DNA of 64,000 nt from an uncultured Verrucomicrobiae bacterium (GCA_963772365.1 CAVYXA010000001.1:1504001-1568000), one strand, 5' to 3'; positions 6,900-20,346 are shown, numbered from the stretch's first letter. Numbers and translations: made by a program. The notes: a model not told the origin generated them from the sequence alone.

Positions 6900-8033
6900 A
6901 TGACCTATTGGCTTGATTTGTTTACCGGCCAGACATGGCAGGAATTTCGCGACCATGGCGCGACTGTGAGCGGATTCCGCAAACGAATGCACAAAGCTGT
7001 CGAGCGAATTAAGCCGGGAGACATTTTGCTCTGTTATTTGACTGGCGTGATGCGATGGGTAGGCGCGCTCGAAGTGTTAGGCCACAGCCGAGACAAGAGC
7101 GCTATTTGGCAATTCGATGAATTTCCTGAACGACTCAGCGTGAAGCCAATCGTGATGTTGTCGCCCGAGCACGGCGTGCCGATGGAAGAACTAGAAGCGA
7201 AGGTGGATTTTTATCGGTCACGCGCAGACCGACCGGGTTTCAATGGATTTCTGCGAATGAGCCCGAACCGGTTCAAACGCGCAGGCGACGGTGAGTTAAT
7301 ATTGGATTTGCTTAGAGCAGCCGAGAAGCAGCCGATCAATCGATCTGTCGATCCAAAGAAACTTGCGCGAAGACCATTCTACAAAGCCGAAGAGAAGCGT
7401 GGCAAGCGGAAAGTCACGATAGTTGTGAGTGTCCCGGAAGCAGATGAACAACAGTCTGACACGCCGGTTGCACCCGAAGCAGAACCGACTGGAACACGCC
7501 ACACCGAAATCCAGTACGCGCTGCTCACTCTAGGTCGGGATATGGGGTTTGATCTCTGGGTTGCACGGAATGATCGTTCTAAGGTTTGGAACGGATCCAA
7601 TCTCGGATCACTGGCTGGAATGGTTGGTCAATTGCCAACTCAATTTAACGAAGCGACTAATCGTACGATCGAACTAATCGACGTTCTCTGGTTGAAGGGA
7701 AATTCGATTGTTGCCGCGTTTGAAGTTGAATCGACAACTTCTGTTTATTCTGGTTTGTTGCGGATGAGCGATTTACTCGCGCTGCAACCAAACCTCTCAA
7801 TCGACTTGTTTCTAGTCGCGCCTGATGATCGCCGGGACAAGGTGGAAAGCGAACTAATGCGTCCGACATTCAAGCTCCGCGAAAAACCGCTTTCGTCGAT
7901 CTGCGGTTTCTTGGGATTCGATTCGCTGGTTGAGAAACTGAAAGCCATCCAGCAACTCGGGTTGGCTTCTTCGCTTAAGCCGGATTTTCTGGAAAAAACG
8001 GCCGAATACTTCGGGAATGAGGATGCAAATTGA
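6900..8033 (+). CDS. EVE-domain + PD-(D/E)xK-like nuclease (putative modification-dependent restriction endonuclease)
   Basis: N-terminal EVE signature (MTYWL...IKPGDILLCY); C-terminal HTEIQ...IDVLW...AAFEVEST restriction-endonuclease-like motif. Confidence 0.75.
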   Translation: MTYWLDLFTGQTWQEFRDHGATVSGFRKRMHKAVERIKPGDILLCYLTGVMRWVGALEVLGHSRDKSAIWQFDEFPERLSVKPIVMLSPEHGVPMEELEAKVDFYRSRADRPGFNGFLRMSPNRFKRAGDGELILDLLRAAEKQPINRSVDPKKLARRPFYKAEEKRGKRKVTIVVSVPEADEQQSDTPVAPEAEPTGTRHTEIQYALLTLGRDMGFDLWVARNDRSKVWNGSNLGSLAGMVGQLPTQFNEATNRTIELIDVLWLKGNSIVAAFEVESTTSVYSGLLRMSDLLALQPNLSIDLFLVAPDDRRDKVESELMRPTFKLREKPLSSICGFLGFDSLVEKLKAIQQLGLASSLKPDFLEKTAEYFGNEDAN

Positions 8034-8046
8034 GGCGTGCGAATGA

Positions 8047-8670
8047 TTATTCGTAAGATGCCCGACCTAACTTTTGGGCGATCTCATCTGGTTCGATTCG
8101 TCCCAACGTCGGTCTTCGATGGCCGATGTACCGACTCTTATCAACTAGATCACTTTCGCCCTTTGTAGTGTGGAGAAATAGCTGACAGATTGTGAATCCG
8201 GGCCTGATCGCAATGGGAATTTCTCCCACGTTCGTTAGTTCAAGCGTTAGGCAGCCGGTGTACCCCGGATGAACTCCCGCTGCGGTGGCAATGATCAAGC
8301 CACGCCTGCCCCATGATGATTTCCCAATCACGTACGCTGCTAAATTTGTAGGCAGTCGTATCCATTCTAAGGTTGCCGCCAGCACAAAAGAGCGCGGATG
8401 GATGATGTATTCCCCACCGAAGGGTACGAAGTTCGTGCGCGTAAACTTTGCGTCGTTCCACGATCCAGTCTTCGTTGGATCGATTTCAAGCAGCGGCATC
8501 CGTCGTCGGTAGAGCGTGACAAACCATGAACCAAGCCGCAAATCAATCGACGCTGACCCGCTCGCGCTCAAAATTTTGAGATCTGGCTGCGGTCGAATTA
8601 ACAATCGTTCGGGCCTGCTTCCCTCAAGATCCGACAGCAATTTCGCTATTTCGTCAGCCTTTAAAATCAT
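8047..8670 (-). CDS. dcd: dCTP deaminase, trimeric dUTPase fold, variant
   Basis: MILKADEI start; ASIDLRLG, FVLAATLEWIRLP, GKSSWGRRGL, HPGYTGCLTLELTNVG, ICQL.L motifs. Confidence 0.85.
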   Translation of the reverse strand: MILKADEIAKLLSDLEGSRPERLLIRPQPDLKILSASGSASIDLRLGSWFVTLYRRRMPLLEIDPTKTGSWNDAKFTRTNFVPFGGEYIIHPRSFVLAATLEWIRLPTNLAAYVIGKSSWGRRGLIIATAAGVHPGYTGCLTLELTNVGEIPIAIRPGFTICQLFLHTTKGESDLVDKSRYIGHRRPTLGRIEPDEIAQKLGRASYE

Positions 8671-9909
8671 GATGAAACGACGATCTCTTGGTACTCCAAA
8701 ACTTCGATGGATTTTAGAAGAAGCTCCTTGAGGTACAGTTGATCGTCGAGATTTGATCTGCGGTATATCTGACCACAGATTCTCATCGTGGAAGCCGCGC
8801 CAACCGGCATTTAGAATATTAGCCAAGCAGCCAGCATGTTGTGCGGGCGCGATTAGTTGGAAATCCGCGTAAATCTCATTATTCTTTTCCGTTGAAGGCA
8901 GCGTCAGTGCAGCATCGGTGACAATCTCATTTGCGAGTGTGATCAGCGTCTTAGTTTGATTCTGCGATGCATAATCCGCCAGAGAGAGCAGAAATTTCTT
9001 GTTGCGTTCGTATTCCGCGGGTTCACTGAAGTCTTCAAACAACCCGGCAAAACTCGGTCGCACCTTAACGCCGTACGCATCCGCAGCGGTATCCATGTTC
9101 CCAACACGCCGCTGCAGATTTGGGTAAATCACAGATCGCGTACCTCGCGGTCGCGGGGAAAGTAGATACGCAAATGCCTGACAGTATGATTCGCCAAAAA
9201 TTCGGACGCCTATCACATCGCAAAATGTCTCTTCCATTTGGCGGGTTGCCCAATCTGTGGCAGCCCACCACGTTTGCCGCACAATCAGATCTTCTGTGAC
9301 TGAAGCTTTATCTTGTACTTCCGGATGCAGCGTTTGAAATTCCTGCCACCGAGGTCCAGTGATTTGATTGACGATTTCATCCTCTATTGGTCGGCTAAAC
9401 CGGTTGTGCATAGTCCTGTCGGTCCAAATCGTATGGCCCAGCTCATGACCGGCTAGGGGAACAAGCAACGGATTCGATGATTCGTGAGCTGGCAGCCCGA
9501 TCAGTACAAAATTGGGCAGATGGGTTATTCGTGCGTAAGTGAAAGGACTGTACTCCCACTCGGATGACAAAAGCAGCTTGGCATCTTTCCCCAGAATTTT
9601 CTGGCAAATTCTTAGAATAGGGCGGTAGATTTCAAACGCGTTCCGCACATTCGTTGAACGCAAAATGAAACCGAGGATCGGAAGGTAATCGAACAATCCG
9701 GCGACCTCGGCCATCGACGCGGCACGCATTGTGTCAGGGTCGCTTTCGTCATCAAGATTTGCTAAAATCTCGAGAAAACCGCGGAATCTTCCTTCGATTA
9801 AGTCGAGCGCCCGCTTGGAATCCAGATAAGGAAAGTCTGAAGCTTGGAGCTTCGTTATCTCATCTAGAAACGCTGTGACGCGTCCTTTAGAAAACTCGAG
9901 CGATACCAC
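8667..9909 (-). CDS. HExxH zincin (M48/gluzincin-like) metallopeptidase-like protein; native C-terminus probably in the +1 frame
   Basis: GHELGH plus downstream EETFCD; removing one base near 8732 gives ...VLKELLLKSIEVLEYQEIVVSS* with an ATGA overlap onto the dcd start. Confidence 0.6.
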
Positions 9910-10352
9910 TACCGCCGAAAAGTATGTGTGGGTTCAAGGTCCTGCAATGATTGTCGGTACGCAGTAGCATATTTTGACAGCGCGACGCAAAAATTCCGGA
10001 TTTTTTCTACCTGCTCGGCTTGGGCGTCTTCGGCCAATTTGGTCATGGCATCGGCAATGTCCCCTGCTCCAGTAATTAGTTCGTTGGTTGTCTTGACCGG
10101 GCCTGCCCACTCAGTGGTATCGAGTGCTGGCCCCACAATCGCAAATGTGCTGGAATCAAGCACGGCACGTTTTCCATTCGCAATAGAGCCCTCAAGAGAA
10201 ACTCTCAGCCGATTTCCAATCTCATTCACCGTCGATAAGCCGATACGCCTGCCGCGACGCAGACTGTCAAGCTCGATCGCCGCTTGCGCGGCGAGCATCG
10301 GAAGATCGGGATCATACAAGCGCAAGGATGTGGGAGCACTGAACGGAGACAT
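9909..10352 (-). CDS. Hypothetical alpha-helical protein, first gene of the dcd operon
   Basis: RBS-like AAAGGTGA before ATG at 10352; its TAG overlaps the GTG start of the next gene (TAGTG). Confidence 0.7.
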   Translation of the reverse strand: MSPFSAPTSLRLYDPDLPMLAAQAAIELDSLRRGRRIGLSTVNEIGNRLRVSLEGSIANGKRAVLDSSTFAIVGPALDTTEWAGPVKTTNELITGAGDIADAMTKLAEDAQAEQVEKIRNFCVALSKYATAYRQSLQDLEPTHTFRR

Positions 10353-10466
10353 ATTTTTCACCTTTCTGATTTCGACACCGACAAAGAGATTTCGTGCCGG
10401 TGAGACCATTTGGATCCCATGCTATTTTCGCCGGTTGATACCGTGCAAGCATTAAGATGAGTAAAT

Positions 10467-10495
10467 ATTACAAGGGCTTGTTCTCCACTTGTCAA
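10467..10495 (-). promoter_or_regulatory. sigma70 promoter of the three-gene dcd operon
   Basis: Minus strand TTGACA-17 bp-TGTAAT. Confidence 0.7.
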
Positions 10496-10503
10496 CAGCT
10501 TAT

Positions 10504-10550
10504 TCACTATATCTAGTACCCTCTTGAGCTGCACCCCCACTATTTAGTGA
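10504..10550. promoter_or_regulatory. Tandem NrdR-like boxes upstream of the dcd operon
   Basis: TCACTATATCTAGTAC (10504-10519) and CCCCACTATTTAGTGA (10535-10550), starts 31 bp apart, matching acaCwAtATaTwGtgt. Confidence 0.7.
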
Positions 10551-10695: not shown

Positions 10696-10749
10696 TCATC
10701 CACATCCCTGGCTCGTGCCGCATTCGGTGCAGACGCCGGCGCGGATCAT
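10696..10749 (-). repeat. Degenerate duplicate of the nrdJ 3' end (integration scar/pseudogene fragment)
   Basis: Encodes IRAG---VCTECGTSQGCG*, versus nrdJ IRAGACGVCTECGTSQGCG*, with many synonymous differences. Confidence 0.85.
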
Positions 10750-10807: not shown

Positions 10808-13800
10808 TTAACCACATCCTTGACTGGTACCGCACTCCGTACATACACCGCAGGCGCCGGCGCGGATCACTTTGTTGCTTCCGCACACGGAGCAGGTGAT
10901 GTCCATGAACATGTTGCCGAGCGCTTCTTTGACGCGCTCAGCGTGGCTGTGACCGTTTCCGGCCACGGCGGGCGCGCCTTCGTTAGGGGAGTGGCCGGTG
11001 ATGACGTCGATTAGTTCTTTTTCGCCGGTGCGCGGAAGATCGACAACGGGCCGGTTGACCGCTTTCTTCTCAATTTCGGCAATCTCTTTCATCGGGAGCT
11101 CGGGCTGGCCGCGATTGGGTGAGGTCGCTTCTTTGTAGCCTTTGATGAACTGGCAACCGAGCCAGCGAAACACGTAATCGGTGATGCTGGTCGCGCTGCG
11201 GATATCGGGGTTCTTGGTGAACCCGCTCGGCTCGAATCGCTGATAGGCGAATTTTCTGACCAGGCTCTCGAGCGGCACGCCGTATTGCAATGACATGGAG
11301 GTGAGCGTGCCTATCGTATCCATGAGTCCGCCGATGGTGCTCCCTTCCTTCGACATCTGAATGAAAAGTTCGCCCGGTTGGCCGTTCTCGTACAGGCCGA
11401 CGGTGATATAGCCTTCGTGTCCGGCGATCTCAAACTTGTGCGTGAGCGACATCCGGGTGTCGGTCATGCGATGGCGCACAGGTTGGTCGGCCTGGATACG
11501 TAACATCGACAATTCCTGTTCCAGCTCGAGGATGCGTTCCTGGAGATCGTCGGAGCCGGCATCTGATCCGCTGAGGACAGCGGACGCTACAGTATCGTCG
11601 GTTGCGCCCATGTGTTTAGTCTTGCGCGTGTTTAACGGGGCGGATCGCTTCGAGTTTTCGCGATAAATGGCGATCGATTTCAGCCCGAGCCGCCAGCCTT
11701 CGATGTAAGCATTCATGATTTCATCGGCGGTTGCCGATTCGGGCAGGTTTACCGTTTTGGAAATCGCGCCGCTGAGGAACGGTTGGGCGGCGGCCATCAT
11801 GTGGAGATGCGCATTGTAATGCAGTGAACGCTGCCCTTTGAACGGCTTGAATGCGCAATCGAAGATGGGGAGATGCTCAGGTTTCAACCCGGACGAAATT
11901 GTCGATCCATCGGTGTCGGTCACATCTTCGATGGTGTCGAATGCGTCGATGTGGGCGATGATTCGTTCGACCTCTTCGGAGTTGTAGCCGAGTTTTTCCA
12001 GCGCTGGTTTCACGGTTTGATTGACAATTTTCAACATACCGCCGCCGGCGAGTAGTTTGTATTTCACCAGCGCAATGTCCGGCTCGATTCCGGTGGTGTC
12101 GCAATCCATCAGAAAACTGATCGTGCCCGTAGGTGCGAGCACGGTAACCTGCGCGTTGCGATAACCGTGTCGTTTACCCAGCTCGGCTACTTTTTTCCAA
12201 GTCTTGCGCGCTTCCTGTTTTAAATAGAGAAACTCGTCCGTGTCCGGGATTTCGCTCACGGCGCACCGGTGGAGATCGATCACATCGAGCATCGGCGCGA
12301 CATTGCTTTTCGCGACCGGTTTCGGCACACCGGCGCATTTGGCGTCCTTGTAACCGGGGAAGGGTCCCATGGTCCGCGCCATGCGGGCGCTTTGCTCGTA
12401 GGCTTCACCGGTCATGATCGATGTGACGGCGCCGCAGAGCGCCCGGCCTTCGATGCTGTCGTAGCCGTAGCCGTAGCTCATGATTAGCGAGCCGAGGTTC
12501 GCGTAACCAAGCCCGAGCGTGCGGAAAATGTGCGAGTTTTCGGCGATCTCTTTGATCGGATAACTGGCGTTATCGACGATGATCTCCTGCGCGGTGATGA
12601 ACACGCGCACCGCCGACTTGAACCGTTCGATATCGAATTCGCCGTCGGCGCCCTTGAATTTGATTAAATTGAGCGAAGCGAGATTGCACGCGGTGTTATC
12701 GAGAAACAGATATTCCGAGCACGGATTTGTTGAGTTCTGTCGATCCGTTCCTTTGCAGGTGTGCCATTTGTGGATCGTGGTATCGAACTGCATCCCGGGG
12801 TCGCCGCACACCCATGTGCCTTCCGCGACTTTGCGCAGCAGTGCCCGCGCGTCTTTCTTTTCGCACGGTTTACCGTCCAGCACGCGGCGAGTCCACCATT
12901 CGCGGCCTTCCACGGCGGCTTCCATGAATTCATCGCTGACGCGCACGCTCAGGTTTTCATTTTGATACATCACCGAGCCGTAGGCGTCGCCGTTGTAACT
13001 GCCGTCGTAGCCCTGCTCGATCAACGCCCACGCCTTTTTCTCTTCTTTTTGTTTGGCGTCGATGAACTCCTCGATGTCGGGATGCCAATCTTTCAGCGTG
13101 TTCATTTTGGCCGCACGCCGCGTTTTGCCGCCGCTTTTCACAACGTTCGCGACCTGATCGTAGACTTTCAGGAAGGATAGCGGCCCGCTCGGTTTACCGC
13201 CGCCGCTCAATTTTTCCCTTGTCGATCTTAACGTGGAAAGATCGGAGCCAGTGCCACTGCCATATTTGAACAGCATCGCCTCGCTCGTGGCCAGCCGCAT
13301 GATGTCTTCCATCGTGTCGTGCACGCTCTGAATGAAACAGGCGCTGCCCTGCGGGTATTCGTATTGCGTAGGCGCGCGCTCGGCTACACCACTCTGACGA
13401 TTGTAAAAATAGTTGCCTGCTCCTGCATTCTTGCCCACGCCATATTGATGATAGAGCCCGACATTAAACCAGACCGGCGAATTGAACGCGCCATGCTGAT
13501 TCAAACAGAGCCAGGTCAATTCGTCGTAGAAAATTTCCGCCGATTCAGCGTCGGCAAAATAATCATCCGCGATTCCCCAATCAGTAATCGTGCGCGTCAC
13601 TCGATGAATCAATTGCCGCACCGAACTCTCGCGACCGCCTTTGCTCGGATCGAGACCCTGCGCGATGTCGCCATAGAAATATTTCGAGACCGCAATCTTC
13701 GTGGCCAGCGCGCTCCAACTTTTTGGAACCTCGATGTCTTCCTGTTTGAAGATGATTTTGCCGCCATCGTCCGCGATTTCAGCAGTCCGGCGTTCCCATT

Positions 13801-13957
13801 CAATTTGATCGAATGGTTTCACCGTTGGACTACTGAAAACGCGTTCGAAACACAGGCCGGCAGTTTTCTTTTTGGACGCACGCGAACGGCGAAGATCCGC
13901 CGATTTAGCTTCTTTCCTGAGTGAGGCTGGCGTGAGACCGGGCTTGAGTTGGATCAT
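10808..13957 (-). CDS. nrdJ: Class II adenosylcobalamin-dependent ribonucleotide reductase with TSCPD domain and C-terminal Zn ribbon
   Basis: FNSPVWFN, SACFI, TNPCSEY, APTGTISF, GAISKTVNLP; C-terminal CxxC...CxxC; start chosen at MIQLKPG. Confidence 0.95.
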   Translation of the reverse strand: MIQLKPGLTPASLRKEAKSADLRRSRASKKKTAGLCFERVFSSPTVKPFDQIEWERRTAEIADDGGKIIFKQEDIEVPKSWSALATKIAVSKYFYGDIAQGLDPSKGGRESSVRQLIHRVTRTITDWGIADDYFADAESAEIFYDELTWLCLNQHGAFNSPVWFNVGLYHQYGVGKNAGAGNYFYNRQSGVAERAPTQYEYPQGSACFIQSVHDTMEDIMRLATSEAMLFKYGSGTGSDLSTLRSTREKLSGGGKPSGPLSFLKVYDQVANVVKSGGKTRRAAKMNTLKDWHPDIEEFIDAKQKEEKKAWALIEQGYDGSYNGDAYGSVMYQNENLSVRVSDEFMEAAVEGREWWTRRVLDGKPCEKKDARALLRKVAEGTWVCGDPGMQFDTTIHKWHTCKGTDRQNSTNPCSEYLFLDNTACNLASLNLIKFKGADGEFDIERFKSAVRVFITAQEIIVDNASYPIKEIAENSHIFRTLGLGYANLGSLIMSYGYGYDSIEGRALCGAVTSIMTGEAYEQSARMARTMGPFPGYKDAKCAGVPKPVAKSNVAPMLDVIDLHRCAVSEIPDTDEFLYLKQEARKTWKKVAELGKRHGYRNAQVTVLAPTGTISFLMDCDTTGIEPDIALVKYKLLAGGGMLKIVNQTVKPALEKLGYNSEEVERIIAHIDAFDTIEDVTDTDGSTISSGLKPEHLPIFDCAFKPFKGQRSLHYNAHLHMMAAAQPFLSGAISKTVNLPESATADEIMNAYIEGWRLGLKSIAIYRENSKRSAPLNTRKTKHMGATDDTVASAVLSGSDAGSDDLQERILELEQELSMLRIQADQPVRHRMTDTRMSLTHKFEIAGHEGYITVGLYENGQPGELFIQMSKEGSTIGGLMDTIGTLTSMSLQYGVPLESLVRKFAYQRFEPSGFTKNPDIRSATSITDYVFRWLGCQFIKGYKEATSPNRGQPELPMKEIAEIEKKAVNRPVVDLPRTGEKELIDVITGHSPNEGAPAVAGNGHSHAERVKEALGNMFMDITCSVCGSNKVIRAGACGVCTECGTSQGCG

Positions 13958-14037
13958 GGCGTTAGGAGGGTTGAGGTTGGGAATTCCAGTTAATACCGGT
14001 GAACAGCCAAGGCCAATAACCTGTGAACCGTAGTGAA

Positions 14038-14085
14038 CAACAAGTAATAGCGCAGCTGTCCGGGCGGATGCACAATATGCAGTGC
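14038..14085. promoter_or_regulatory. Tandem NrdR-like boxes upstream of nrdJ
   Basis: AACAAGTAATAGCG (14039-14052, weak) and CACAATATGCAGTG (14071-14084), 32 bp apart, upstream of a ribonucleotide reductase. Confidence 0.6.
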
Positions 14086-14203
14086 CGCAGCCGGTCAAGG
14101 CAAGACAAAATTTGTGACATTTTTCGGAGCCTGAGCTTTACCCGGTAAAATCGGCGAGAAGTTCTCGAAAACGTGGGCCGGAGACCCTTCGACTATGCGC
14201 GCG

Positions 14204-14843
14204 TTAGGGCCAGGGACGCAACCCCGGGCCGCGCGGATAAAGTGGCGCTTGACGGTACGAACCGAACCATGGCGAGCGGCTTTGTATTCTTTGGTACCTC
14301 GAACCGCTTCCTCGCGGCGTGCGCCCGAACACGTTGACCGGTGTGCCGATGTCGACCGCATTGAAAAATGCAATCGCCATTTCTCTCGGGATCCGAACAC
14401 AACCGTGTGAAGCGGGATATCCGGGCAAATAGCCGGCGTGCAATCCATCAGCGCCGTTGAACCGCATGGAATAAGGCATCGGCGCCGGAACAAATCTGCA
14501 TCCGTGCGGCACTTTTCATATCGATATCCACATCAGCCACGACCGTGTTGCCTCGAGCATCGATAATCTTGCCGTAAACGCTGGAGTAATGCGCTCGCTC
14601 TTTCTCGATAACTTTGAATGCGCCGGTCCCGGTAAGATGACCGTAGCGCCCACTCGAGATGGGCGACTGCAAAACGGCGTGCCGGCCACGAAGCAGATAC
14701 GCCACCTGCTCCTCTAAATCGATTTCGATGCGATACGGAGTCGGATTTTCGGCAAGAGCAGACATTCCCACCAGCAACAGGATCGACAGTAAACACCAGA
14801 ACCTCACAGGAAGTTCAACACCAAAAAATGAAAGAAGTCTCAA
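14204..14843 (-). CDS. L,D-transpeptidase (YkuD family), split by one frameshift near 14515
   Basis: IEIDLEEQ...SPISSGR in one frame; [17 protein letters not shown] in another; the shift is in an A-run. Confidence 0.85.
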
Positions 14844-15643
14844 ACTGCGATTGGCGCTTTGATTGATGGATGTGGATCGTAACCGAGCAACTCGAAATCT
14901 TCGAAATCGAATTCGTGAATATTCTTGATCGCGGGATTAATTTTCATTCGCGGTAAAGATCGACAATCGCGCGTCAACTGTTCGCGGGCCTGATCGAGAT
15001 GATTTTGATAAAGATGAAGATCGCCAAAAGTGTGGACAAAATCGCCGGGCATAAGATCGACAACCTGTGCGACCATCATCGTCAGTAATGCATAGGAAGC
15101 GATGTTGAACGGCACGCCGAGGAAAAGATCTGCGCTCCGCTGATATAGCTGGCAGCTAAGTTCGCCATCCTGCACGTAGAATTGGAATAGGACATGACAC
15201 GGCGGCAAAGCCATCGTCTCGATTTCGGATGGATTCCATGCGCTCACGATCAAGCGGCGGCTATACGGGTTTGATTTGATGTGATCGATCAGGTTGCCAA
15301 TCTGATCGATTCGTTTCCCGTCAGCTCCGCGCCAATCGCGCCATTGCGCTCCATAAACGCGGCCGAGATTGCCATTCTCATCGGCCCATTCATCCCAGAT
15401 TGTGACTTTATGCTCATTCAGGTAACGAATGTTCGTGTCGCCCCGCAGAAACCAGAGCAGCTCGTAAATGATCGATTTAATGTGGAGTTTCTTCGTGGTC
15501 AGGAGCGGGAAACCTGGTCCGTTCGAGCGTAAATCGAAGCGGGCCTGGGCGCCGAAGATCGACAATGTGCCGGTTCCGGTGCGATCGGCGCGCGGTTGAC
15601 CGTGATCGAGAACAAGCCGCAATAGATCGTGATATTGGCGCAC
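14840..15643 (-). CDS. thyA: Thymidylate synthase
   Basis: [36 protein letters not shown]. Confidence 0.97.
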
Positions 15644-17194: not shown

Positions 17195-19058
17195 TCAGCG
17201 AGTGACTGACTCGCTCTGCTCGATTTGCATTCTCAATCTCTGAAATTCGGGCTGAATCGGATTTAGCTTGAGCGCGTTGGCAATCTCTGTTCGGGCAATC
17301 GCGATTTGGCCTGCTTTAACATGAGCTTCGGCCAACAGGTAATAGGTCTTGGCGTTGCGAGGATTCTGCACCAGCGCTTTGGAAAAGAAAGCCGCGGCCT
17401 CATTCCATCGATGCTGATCCAGCGCAAGAAGCCCAAGATTGTTGTAAGCGCCAGCATGTGCGGGATCGAGTTGAAGCGTGGCGACGTAGTACCGATTCGG
17501 CTCCGACCTTGTTTTGCTCGGCCAATCGAAGATTGCCGAGAGCGAAATTTGTCTCGGCGTTACCGGGAACGTAAGCATAAGCCAGTTCGAGCTTTTTGTT
17601 AGCGAGCTCGAGATTATTCGATTCCAGAGCCTGCCGTCCAGAGTTGTAGGCATCGAGAGCCCAAAGAGAAGGATTGCGTTGCGGCCACGCCACGAAAATT
17701 GTTGAAGCGATTAGAAGTCCTAAATAGACAGCAGCAAAACGAAATCTGTTCGTGGCCAGGCTTTGCCAGAAGATCGACAACCCAAAGGCGCCAAGCAAAA
17801 GCAGGCCGGGGACAACTGCCATACGGTAACGCTCCGTGATGAAGACGGTAAGCAATGCCAGCATCTGCAATAAAATTGCCGCAATTATCCAGCGTGACCT
17901 GGGCGCGAGCACCCAACCCAGGAGTATTCCCACTAACCCAAAAGCTGCGACGACACCGAAGTAAAGGCCGGGCAGGATCACACCTTCATCCCGCAGAATC
18001 GTTATGATGCTCAGATCATCATATTGAAAGGCACTCCAGAAGTTTCGCAGTTTGGTGGCCAGTAGCTTTAGCCAATCCGTAAAATGACCGGCGATATAGG
18101 CCCTTGTCTTGTCCGACCAGTAGGCAGAAACCTGCCCCCGTTTGAGCGGATGGCCTGCGGCGATTTCGGCTCGAGTAATCGAGTCCTGGAGCATTGCCGT
18201 TTGCCCTGCGCGTAACCCTGGCGGAAATCGCGGATAACCATTCGACTCCGGATTATTGCCGATCCAGAAATTGATTCCGCTGTGAGCCGAGAGCAAGACC
18301 GGTTCGCGCGCGATGAAATAGTTGTGAACCCAACAAGGCGATGTCCCGGCCGCGACGCCTGCAAATAGTAGAACCGAAGCCAGCAACAAAGAGATCTTCC
18401 ATTTTCCGTGATTGCCGCGGGTCGGTTTCAAGGCTATGGCGGCGAAAACGAGTGGAATAAGGAACAGCATCGCCGCCACTCCCATGGCAATAAAGCCTAT
18501 CAAAAGACCCAGCCAGAAGCACTCCACGCCGCGCGGTGCAAAGTCATTGCGAACGATTCGCCAGGTGACGAACCAAAAAGCGAAAACGAACCAGGCGGTC
18601 GGCATAAGGATAACCGCGTATGCTTGGGCCGGAGCGAAGAAGCCCCAGCCAAGTGCCGCCGTCATCCCAATGAATTGAGCCTTACTCCACGGCCGACAGG
18701 GATTGCCTTCTGCGCTGAAGATCCGAATCCCGAGCTTGTAAAGAATGGTGGCGGTCCCAGCGTCGAAGCAGGCTTGCAAAAAAGCGGGAACAAACGGGCC
18801 GTACCCGACGACTTTGTAAATGAGAGCGAGCAGATAGGCATAGAGCGGCAGGCCATAAAAGGCCAGGTGATCCGTAAAGTGACGTTCGAGGATCTGCCGG
18901 GCCCACTCATCATAGAAATGCATGTCGCCATAGGTTGGTAGGAGAAAAGGCGAAATCGTCAGGCGTGCCAGGACGATTAGCCGCAGGAGCAATACGGCCG
19001 CAAAAACGTAATGAGCCGGCCCGGGTGAATTCCGAAAGGGCGATCTCGAAGGGGTCAC
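17195..19058 (-). CDS. PMT/GT39-like membrane glycosyltransferase with C-terminal TPRs; frameshift near 17500
   Basis: DMHFYDEWA, PLY.Y.LA, GINFWIGNNP, ERYR motifs; TPRs (AYNNLG, NPRNAKTYY) continue in ORF 17195-17653. Confidence 0.75.
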
Positions 19059-19242: not shown

Positions 19243-19647
19243 ATGTTACAGAAACTGAATAACCGCCGCGGGGGCTTCACCCTCGTGGAAATCATGATCG
19301 TGGTCGCGATCATCGCATTGCTGGCAGCCATCGCCGTGCCCGGATTCCTCCGTGCCCGGAAGCGCTCGCAAGCCACTCGAATCCTGAACGATCTTCGCCT
19401 GATTGATTCAGCAGTCGACCAATACGCGATTGAGACCAATCGCTCTACCGGTGCCACGGTGAATACGGTGGACTGGACGAACTACCTTAAACAAGGAACC
19501 GCGCTCTACAACACGGGCACGGACATCCTTGGCAACGGCTTTGGCGCTCAGGCCGTTGATACGCTGCCCAAAGTTCCGCACAACAGCTTCCTCGCATTGT
19601 CGGACGTTGCTCCAGTTGGGTTCTGGTCGCCTTATTCGGCTAACTAA
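19243..19647 (+). CDS. Type IV pilin-like protein, copy 1
   Basis: Class III signal GG/FTLVEIMIVVAII. Confidence 0.9.
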   Translation: MLQKLNNRRGGFTLVEIMIVVAIIALLAAIAVPGFLRARKRSQATRILNDLRLIDSAVDQYAIETNRSTGATVNTVDWTNYLKQGTALYNTGTDILGNGFGAQAVDTLPKVPHNSFLALSDVAPVGFWSPYSAN

Positions 19648-19941: not shown

Positions 19942-20346
19942 ATGTTACAAAAACTGAATAAAAGCCGCGGGGGTTTTACCCTCGTGGAAATCATGATCGT
20001 CGTCGCGATCATCGCATTACTGGCAGCCATCGCCGTGCCCGGATTCCTCCGTGCCCGGAAGCGCTCGCAAGCCACTCGAATCTTGAACGATCTTCGCCTG
20101 ATCGATTCAGCGGTCGATCAATATTCGATTGAGACTAACCGCTCTACTGGCGCTACAGTGAATACCGTGGACTGGACGGCCTATCTTAAGAAGGGAAGTG
20201 TCCTCTACAACACAGGCACGGATATTCTAGGCAACGGCTTTGGTCCCCAGAGCGTTGATACGCTGCCCAAAGTTCCGCACAATAGTTTCCTCGCATTGTC
20301 GGACGTTGCTCCAGTTGGGTTCTGGTCGCCTTATTCGGCTAACTAA
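19942..20346 (+). CDS. Type IV pilin-like protein, copy 2
   Basis: Same length (134 aa) and near-identical to copy 1; offset 699 bp. Confidence 0.9.
   Translation: MLQKLNKSRGGFTLVEIMIVVAIIALLAAIAVPGFLRARKRSQATRILNDLRLIDSAVDQYSIETNRSTGATVNTVDWTAYLKKGSVLYNTGTDILGNGFGPQSVDTLPKVPHNSFLALSDVAPVGFWSPYSAN

Follow-up and report, generated by a model that had tools for sequence, protein, structure and literature searches.

Three minus-strand genes, encoding a helical protein (gene 1), a putative metallopeptidase (gene 2), and a dCTP deaminase (Dcd; gene 3), form an obligate, co-diverging, horizontally spread unit that is rare and patchy in its distribution. We analyzed this cassette in a 64,000-nucleotide stretch of DNA (the window) from an uncultured Verrucomicrobiae bacterium (genome G000). 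The three-gene module is real, widespread, and apparently undescribed, and it is most likely a self-contained, horizontally mobile conflict module directed against phages. The first-pass annotation had proposed a protease-gated defense module that depletes dCTP or sanitizes nucleotides; of that interpretation, the conserved accessory three-gene unit has stood, whereas the defense role stays at the level of a model.

Organization of the cassette

The cassette is inserted directly downstream of nrdJ (10808..14098, minus strand; class II ribonucleotide reductase, NF005122 above cut-off), after a diverged duplicate of the final ~17 nrdJ codons (10696..10748, minus strand) that is likely an insertion scar. 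The genes 3' of nrdJ vary among relatives, and a similar duplication of the nrdJ end is present in G004 (locus L015); the 3' end of nrdJ attracts insertions in general. The GC content of the cassette is 0.50 against about 0.55 genome-wide, and its GC3 is 0.51 to 0.53 against 0.64 to 0.68 in nrdJ and a greA-like gene. The stretch had been annotated as AT-rich, and its GC is indeed lower than that of the genome, but the shift is mild and also covers the adjacent, convergent gene (6900..8033, plus strand). This neighbor is type II restriction-enzyme-like (PADLOC REase_II, E=6.6e-17), low in GC like the cassette, and not a conserved part of it.

The likely start of gene 1 (9909..10352, minus strand) is the ATG at 10352, which follows a purine-rich ribosome-binding site and gives a protein of 147 aa. 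The two stop-start overlaps reported earlier are both present: the TAG of gene 1 and the GTG of gene 2 (8667..9909, minus strand; ~412 aa) share TAGTG at 9911-9907, and gene 2 meets gene 3 (8047..8670, minus strand; 207 aa) in ATGA at 8670-8667, where the gene 2 tail, read in the other frame, stops on the dcd ATG. The claim that the operon has its own promoter is borne out in part. A putative sigma70 promoter, TTGACA-17-TGTAAT, is found at 10495-10467 (10467..10495, minus strand) with a perfect -35, but its -10 is weak and non-consensus, and it was absent from a consensus promoter scan because of this poor -10.

As assembled, gene 2 and dcd read as one 620-aa ORF (8047-9909), which is probably the product of an assembly indel, since homologues keep the two genes apart and 15 of 154 conserved control genes of the assembly are themselves frameshifted (20 shifts in 178 kb, judged against intact ORFs of G001, a genome of the same genus, so that a few shifts could be G001 errors). 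Homologues of gene 2 are ~412 aa long and end in a conserved helix, which the window encodes in another frame; this conserved tail supports the net one-base indel (about 8730-8752) that had been postulated. The two genes are separate in 80 genome loci, often with a 4-base overlap as here, and neither these loci nor 348 collected proteins include a natural fusion. One locus flagged as fused (L071) turned out to be a contig-end artifact. No longer fused forms of gene 2 (775 to 2,210 aa) were found among 8,000 candidates, which is weak evidence. The single ORF could instead be taken at face value, as a genuine fusion in a decaying or neofunctional copy, but with no such fusion elsewhere, a frameshift-prone assembly, and a post-shift tail whose conservation continues in the other frame, we regard this as highly improbable.

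Conservation, spread, and mobility

Our sample of 92 loci comprised 80 of 127 genome loci, 3 viral loci, and 9 metagenome loci, from Planctomycetota, Acidobacteriota, Nitrospirota, Verrucomicrobiota, Proteobacteria, Patescibacteria, and other phyla. In searches with profiles built from these same loci, gene 1 lies immediately 5' of gene 2 in 86 of the 88 loci with room for it, and the two apparent exceptions have gene 1 matches by tblastn. Likewise, dcd lies immediately 3' of gene 2 in 82 of 84 loci, and both loci without it have a broken gene 2. The suggestion that dcd is a conserved neighbor of genes 1 and 2 is therefore confirmed by these counts, and also in the reverse direction: a cassette-type Dcd occurs in 5 of 301 genomes of another phylum, and genes 1 and 2 adjoin it in all five (three of these matches being loci already in the sample). 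Over 58 loci, pairwise distances for the three genes are correlated (0.73 to 0.82), a level reached in 0 of 500 permutations, and the three genes therefore move as one.

The cassette was found in 0 of 400 genomes of the same phylum, and its DNA in 0 of 30 relatives. It is carried on 10 conjugative Rhizobium plasmids. Viral contigs contributed only the three cassette loci mentioned; a phage origin was considered and set aside, since none of 50,697 phage records matched the cassette. There is no fourth large conserved gene, the biggest cluster of neighbors being response regulators at 6 loci, and no nucleotide-metabolism gene is a conserved neighbor. At 6 loci, a gene of 65 to 75 aa with a weak DUF7120 match lies upstream of the cassette and may tentatively be read as ribbon-helix-helix-like.

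Two distant versions, L147 and L167, combine an HExxH protein of 450 to 470 aa with a Dcd of a sister clade, and L167 also carries a 171-aa gene upstream. The hhalign values are 98.6% for the family of L147 and 75% for L167, and L147 has a weak M48 match (E=0.028). These loci may point to a protease-Dcd superfamily of considerable age. The distant subtype was absent from the viral contigs, and a scan of 401 genomes of the G455 phylum yielded no full match to it.

The dCTP deaminase

Gene 3 had been annotated as a dUTPase-fold Dcd, and it scores above the cut-offs of both TIGR02274 (114.1 versus 92.8 bits) and PF22769 (107.4 versus 27); it matches PF22769/PF00692 and not PF00383. In an alignment with solved Dcds, S118, R122, and E144, which we take to be the catalytic residues, are invariant in 49/49 cassette Dcds. 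At position 134, the four solved enzymes compared have the DPG-motif Asp, whereas 46 of the 49 cassette Dcds have His and 3 have Gln; His is not unique to the cassette, since 13 of 45 other Dcd-family proteins also have it (Glu in 23). The DPG-motif Asp is needed for dUTP hydrolysis by bifunctional Dcd-dUTPases. Because of the Asp-to-His change at the position used by these enzymes, the cassette Dcd is, judging by this motif, predicted not to be bifunctional and not to hydrolyze dUTP. Our literature search returned no paper on the role of this Asp. The C-terminal lid of the cassette Dcd has lost the usual Gln, and R185 and P187 are invariant.

In a quick tree, the 49 cassette Dcds form a single branch (SH-aLRT 99), and the housekeeping Dcds of the order fall in a distant clade. 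The question whether the host has a separate housekeeping dcd can be answered in the negative for G000, in which gene 3 is the sole Dcd. It does not follow that gene 3 is the vertically inherited copy. A PF22769 match exists in only 1 of 24 genomes of the family, and because the other 23 relatives have none, dcd was acquired rather than inherited, in agreement with its clade of its own. A hand count found a second Dcd-family gene elsewhere in 36 of 50 carrier genomes and none in 14, although most of these genomes are incomplete MAGs and some of the second copies are themselves accessory. A trimeric dUTPase was detected in 0 of 30 host relatives, and a dimeric dUTPase was not found in G000, a genome that is 90% complete.

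The putative metallopeptidase and the helical protein

Clustering at 90% leaves 1,196 homologues of gene 2, and clustering at 50% identity leaves at least 849. The HELGH zinc motif (9447-9433; 9433..9447, minus strand) and EETFCD, the motif of the third zinc ligand (9234-9217; 9217..9234, minus strand), are both in the sequence, as first annotated. H155, E156, H159, D231, P263, and R268 are invariant in 149/149 homologues and E227 is kept in 148/149, so that HExxH is present in 149/149, the Glu of ExxxD in 148/149, and (H/Y)P-x4-R in 149/149; distant L167 has the HP form of the last motif. We take HExxH, ExxxD, and (H/Y)P-x4-R together to be the pattern of M48/U49 gluzincins. On these motifs, gene 2 encodes a candidate gluzincin (M48/Lit-like) peptidase. 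The fold, predicted with a pLDDT of 96.5 for homologue P0004, comprises an N-terminal three-helix bundle, two strands, the HExxH helix, and a helical C terminus.

Database searches added little to this assignment. Gene 2 has no Pfam match in the 24 family members searched, no NCBIfam or PADLOC match, no Foldseek match at E<=0.001 against the PDB and viral models, and nothing below E 0.03 when its profile is run against PDB sequences. Structural comparison with ZMPSTE24 gave Z 6.1 with an rmsd of 7.7 over 184 residues, at rank 48. The best VIA match of the N-terminal bundle (Z 8.2, rmsd 2.3, 83 aligned) was read as a common helical arrangement and dropped.

Gene 1 was described earlier as a helical protein, and its predicted fold indeed consists of five helices (pLDDT 87.5). 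It has no Pfam, NCBIfam, or PADLOC family match, no Foldseek match in the PDB at E<=0.001, and no usable match in the Atlas. FliS, its best VIA match (Z 7.1, rmsd 3.1, 90 aligned), again appears to reflect a common helical arrangement, and a HEPN assignment was rejected (Foldseek E 0.35). An HPFRR-like C-terminal tail ends 27 of 58 gene 1 proteins. We propose that gene 1 may be an inhibitor or a substrate of the protease.

Some of these features would also suit a reversal of roles, in which the Dcd is the nucleotide sensor or signal maker, the gluzincin a Lit-like effector, and gene 1 a restraint on the protease. The signal would then be dUTP or deaminated phage-modified dCTP and the target an essential host protein. 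A surface motif of gene 2, RSTNxRN (R84 in 147/149, R89 in 143/149), could bind phosphate; the nearest named Atlas clusters of gene 2 are the U49 (Lit)/M48 peptidases (0.78 to 0.79, a lead only); and the lost Gln of the Dcd lid hints at altered ligand handling. Yet both Arg residues of RSTNxRN are absent from the distant subtype, and the Ser, Arg, and Glu of the Dcd are invariant in 49/49, as for a working enzyme. We therefore think such a reversal unlikely.

NrdR-like boxes and nucleotide metabolism

The NrdR boxes that had been noted before are present in the window as a tandem of NrdR-like boxes, at 10549-10536 (box 1; 10536..10549, minus strand) and 10518-10505 (box 2; 10505..10518, minus strand), the latter directly upstream of the -35. 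They were scored against an NrdR-box consensus, and a scan with this consensus found only 2 such tandem pairs in the 3.3-Mb genome, the other being upstream of an ORF read as gyrB. According to the available text of PMC2892513, NrdR sites are paired boxes spaced 31 to 32 bp apart; the window promoter has paired boxes 31 bp apart, and nrdR is present in the host genome. The close relative L116 carries the cassette at another site and retains the two boxes together with the -35 and leader, so the boxes travel with the cassette. A box pair (up to 5 mismatches) occurs in 5 of 85 other loci versus 0 of 850 composition-matched shuffles. The description as an NrdR-boxed operon thus fits the window, where the boxes are real, but names a minority trait, and we rejected the boxes as a universal feature of the cassette, 80 of the 85 other loci being without a pair.

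The boxes could point to an accessory nucleotide-metabolism unit under NrdR control, which would channel dCTP toward dUMP/dTTP or sanitize the pool; its substrate may be modified or damaged dCTP, with gene 2 as a regulator or amidohydrolase. Consistent with this, tandem boxes occur in the window and at 5 of 85 other loci but in none of the shuffles, the host has nrdR, 32-bp tandem pairs precede nrdJ in 5 of 14 relatives' loci (one in the unpublished G014), the cassette sits behind nrdJ, the host family is mostly without dcd, and 14 of the 50 carriers have no second Dcd. Against this, most other loci lack the boxes, the conserved neighbors include no nucleotide-metabolism gene, the rare and patchy spread is atypical for a metabolic pathway, and a place behind nrdJ means less at a general insertion spot. 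Furthermore, we know of no other Dcd that requires two dedicated partners. On balance, a metabolic unit seems quite unlikely.

Defense context

Neighborhoods were scanned over at most three mechanically called genes per side, omitting four redundant loci (L051, L052, L057, L069) as well as L112-L124 and discarding generic kinase, helicase, ATPase, RtcR, MutL-like, and transporter matches in loci and controls alike. Credible defense neighbors were present at 12 of 47 loci scanned with PADLOC and at 3 of 26 scanned mainly with Pfam, compared with 2 of 20 random control loci from carrier genomes. They include restriction-modification, Kiwa, Dpd-like, GmrSD, AbiEii, ubiquitin-like E1/E2, CapP, and PDC-S genes. 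The idea that the loci lie in defense islands thus finds a modest excess in its favor, but the excess is not significant (12/47 versus 2/20, Fisher p=0.13; pooled, 15/73 versus 2/20, p=0.23) and is a trend, not a result. The pooled fraction (0.21) refers to ±3 genes on contigs that are often short, whereas the defense-score threshold of 0.33 for defensive dCTP deaminases of the Tal et al./AvcD type uses ±10. Many copies stand alone amid housekeeping genes (ftsZ, dnaA, topA). None of the three proteins matched a family of PADLOC-DB 2.0, a library from 2023, at E<=0.1.

At some loci, the neighbors are toxin-antitoxin genes (PIN, TumE, AbiEii, Fic). Combined with the tight translational coupling, the cassette's own promoter, the ribbon-helix-helix-like gene upstream at 6 loci, and carriage on plasmids, this is compatible with a selfish toxin-antitoxin-protease module in three parts that serves self-maintenance or stress dormancy and has no link to phages. 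But addiction and defense are compatible with each other, and a dedicated protease of 412 aa would presumably be costly for addiction alone; a purely selfish role appears distinctly unlikely.

A model for the cassette

In our best model, to which we give about an even chance, infection leads the protease to remove the gene 1 brake, after which the Dcd drains dCTP and floods the cell with dUTP. The Dcd would be the effector, converting dCTP to dUTP without hydrolyzing the product, so that DNA synthesis is starved of dCTP and loaded with dUTP. This load would be especially toxic in hosts without a detectable dUTPase, like the window host. A Dcd that drains dCTP and leaves dUTP would therefore need a brake, above all where dUTPase is missing. 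Gene 1 may provide it by inhibiting either the Dcd or the protease, and the gluzincin would cleave gene 1 upon sensing infection, possibly at the conserved C-terminal tail. The order from protease through gene 1 to Dcd is inferred and belongs to this model. In some lineages, transcription may also be tied to dNTP status via the NrdR boxes; in others, the small ribbon-helix-helix-like gene upstream might take part.

We favor this model because of the co-occurrence of the three genes, their rarity and mobility, the separate Dcd clade, a host without dUTPase, and some defense neighbors. It is weakened by the non-significant defense excess, a His134 that is not unique, the few viral loci, and the motif-based protease call; NrdR control, present at some loci, is equally compatible with a metabolic role. 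A bolder version holds that the cassette is an undescribed immune system with a housekeeping-fold Dcd as a dUTP weapon and a new gluzincin family that cleaves a new inhibitor family, wired to NrdR in several independent lineages, where infection-driven changes in dNTP pools would induce it. All of this together is conceivable but falls short of an even chance.

If the defense reading holds, the cassette would be a variant of nucleotide-targeting conflict systems. Immunity aimed at dCTP would then have arisen a second time, independently and from another enzyme fold, here with a proteolytic switch and two protein families for which Pfam has no model. NrdR, familiar from ribonucleotide reductase genes, would also be connected to a conflict system. 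Should the role prove non-defensive, a Dcd in constant company of a protease and a helical protein would still lack a biochemical explanation. Given intact copies in culturable Rhizobium and its plasmids, the cassette is directly testable.

Comparison with known systems

The system had been presented as unnamed, and the cassette carries no name in PADLOC, Pfam, NCBIfam, or the literature searched. We found no paper describing the module, although Nicastro et al. 2023 (nucleotide-targeting effectors) and the large defense-prediction supplements could list it; the accessible parts of PMC3239186 and PMC12839542 do not describe it.

With the housekeeping and bifunctional Dcds (E. coli 1xs1, M. tuberculosis 2qxx, and 4xjc), the cassette Dcd has the fold and the SSxxR and TLE motifs in common. 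It differs in its own clade, the His in place of the DPG Asp, a lid without Gln, and the invariant R185/P187. Unlike a housekeeping Dcd, it was never alone in the five dcd-first matches, and its carriers usually have another Dcd.

The M48/U49 gluzincins include HtpX, Ste24, and Lit, and protease-gated defense is known from Lit and CapP/CapH. Gene 2 resembles these gluzincins in HExxH, the downstream ExxxD, and (Y/H)P-x4-R but adds an N-terminal three-helix bundle and a C-terminal helical domain. In contrast to Lit and CapP/CapH, it is partnered with a nucleotide enzyme instead of working alone or against an HTH repressor.

AvcD of the AvcID system is a defensive dCTP deaminase of yet another type, defined by an N-terminal kinase-like domain joined to a zinc-dependent cytosine deaminase domain. 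For this type, that of Tal et al. (10.1101/2021.04.26.441389), the available text of the report establishes dCTP depletion as a defense. As far as that text goes, the predicted chemistry and logic of the cassette are alike, with dCTP deaminated and phage DNA synthesis starved, and both systems are accessory and patchy. The cassette Dcd, however, has the trimeric dUTPase fold without a zinc deaminase or kinase domain, measures 207 aa versus 576, and has two dedicated protein partners.

That dNTP-depleting effectors can have dedicated brakes is evident from the available portion of the Clover report (CloA dGTPase plus CloB; PMC12265719), in which a dNTP-depleting enzyme is likewise checked by a dedicated partner and tuned to nucleotide status. 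Judged from that portion, the two systems share no homology, and the brake of Clover is a nucleotide signal, whereas that of the cassette is probably a protein together with a protease.

Insertion site and regulatory sequences

The 3' end of nrdJ, the class II ribonucleotide reductase gene directly upstream of the cassette, is duplicated in two genomes, that of the host (window 10696-10748) and that of its relative G004 (locus L015), and in both of these genomes inserted genes lie behind nrdJ. The end of this protein-coding gene may be a hotspot for insertions. Between the putative cassette promoter and gene 1, a leader of about 110 nt (window 10353-10460), which includes a short inverted repeat, is conserved between the window and L116, a closely related cassette copy at another site.

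Besides the window's own, the host genome has only one other 31-bp tandem pair of NrdR-like boxes (G000:C3:599866-599911); the ORFs downstream of it resemble gyrB-gyrA. A single NrdR-like box at G000:C1:775335, near locus L031, lies immediately upstream of nrdR, a position that suggests autoregulation of nrdR in this genome.

Genomic neighborhood and host background

Next to the cassette, a restriction-enzyme-like gene (window 6900-8033, plus strand) encodes an N-terminal domain with a weak match to PRK00809, fused to a C terminus that matches PADLOC REase_II. The N-terminal domain can be read as EVE-like, and the gene may encode a modification-dependent nuclease. Further along are thyA (window 14840-15643), identified from its translation, and a tandem pair of nearly identical type IV pilin-like genes (window 19243-19647 and 19942-20346, plus strand); G004 has a similar pair. 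Within the host family, dcd is apparently absent from 23 of 24 genomes and trimeric dUTPase from all 18, in contrast to the presence of thyA in the window.

A TPR membrane protein gene (window 17195-19058, minus strand) and a phosphoglycerate-mutase-like gene (G000:C3:596673-598287) are apparently frameshifted. The assembly has an indel rate of about one per 9 kb, with which these two genes agree.

Distant subtypes and a separate Dcd clade

Distant cassette subtypes combine a 450- to 470-residue HExxH protein with a sister-clade Dcd (L147:77-2115 and L167:1174-3645); at least 85 members make up the family of L147, the gene context having been inspected for a minority. Planctomycete and other genomes each contain several additional Dcd-like genes, which belong to a clade distinct from the cassette Dcds (L160:2929-3848, L166:318-1357, and L173:2902-3894; further loci are L158, L161, L162, L164, L165, L171, L172, and L177). 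Most of their products have His at the DPG position, and in at least three loci the start of the Dcd-like gene overlaps a gene of 108 to 132 codons that has no Pfam family. These genes are a candidate for a second undescribed accessory Dcd module.
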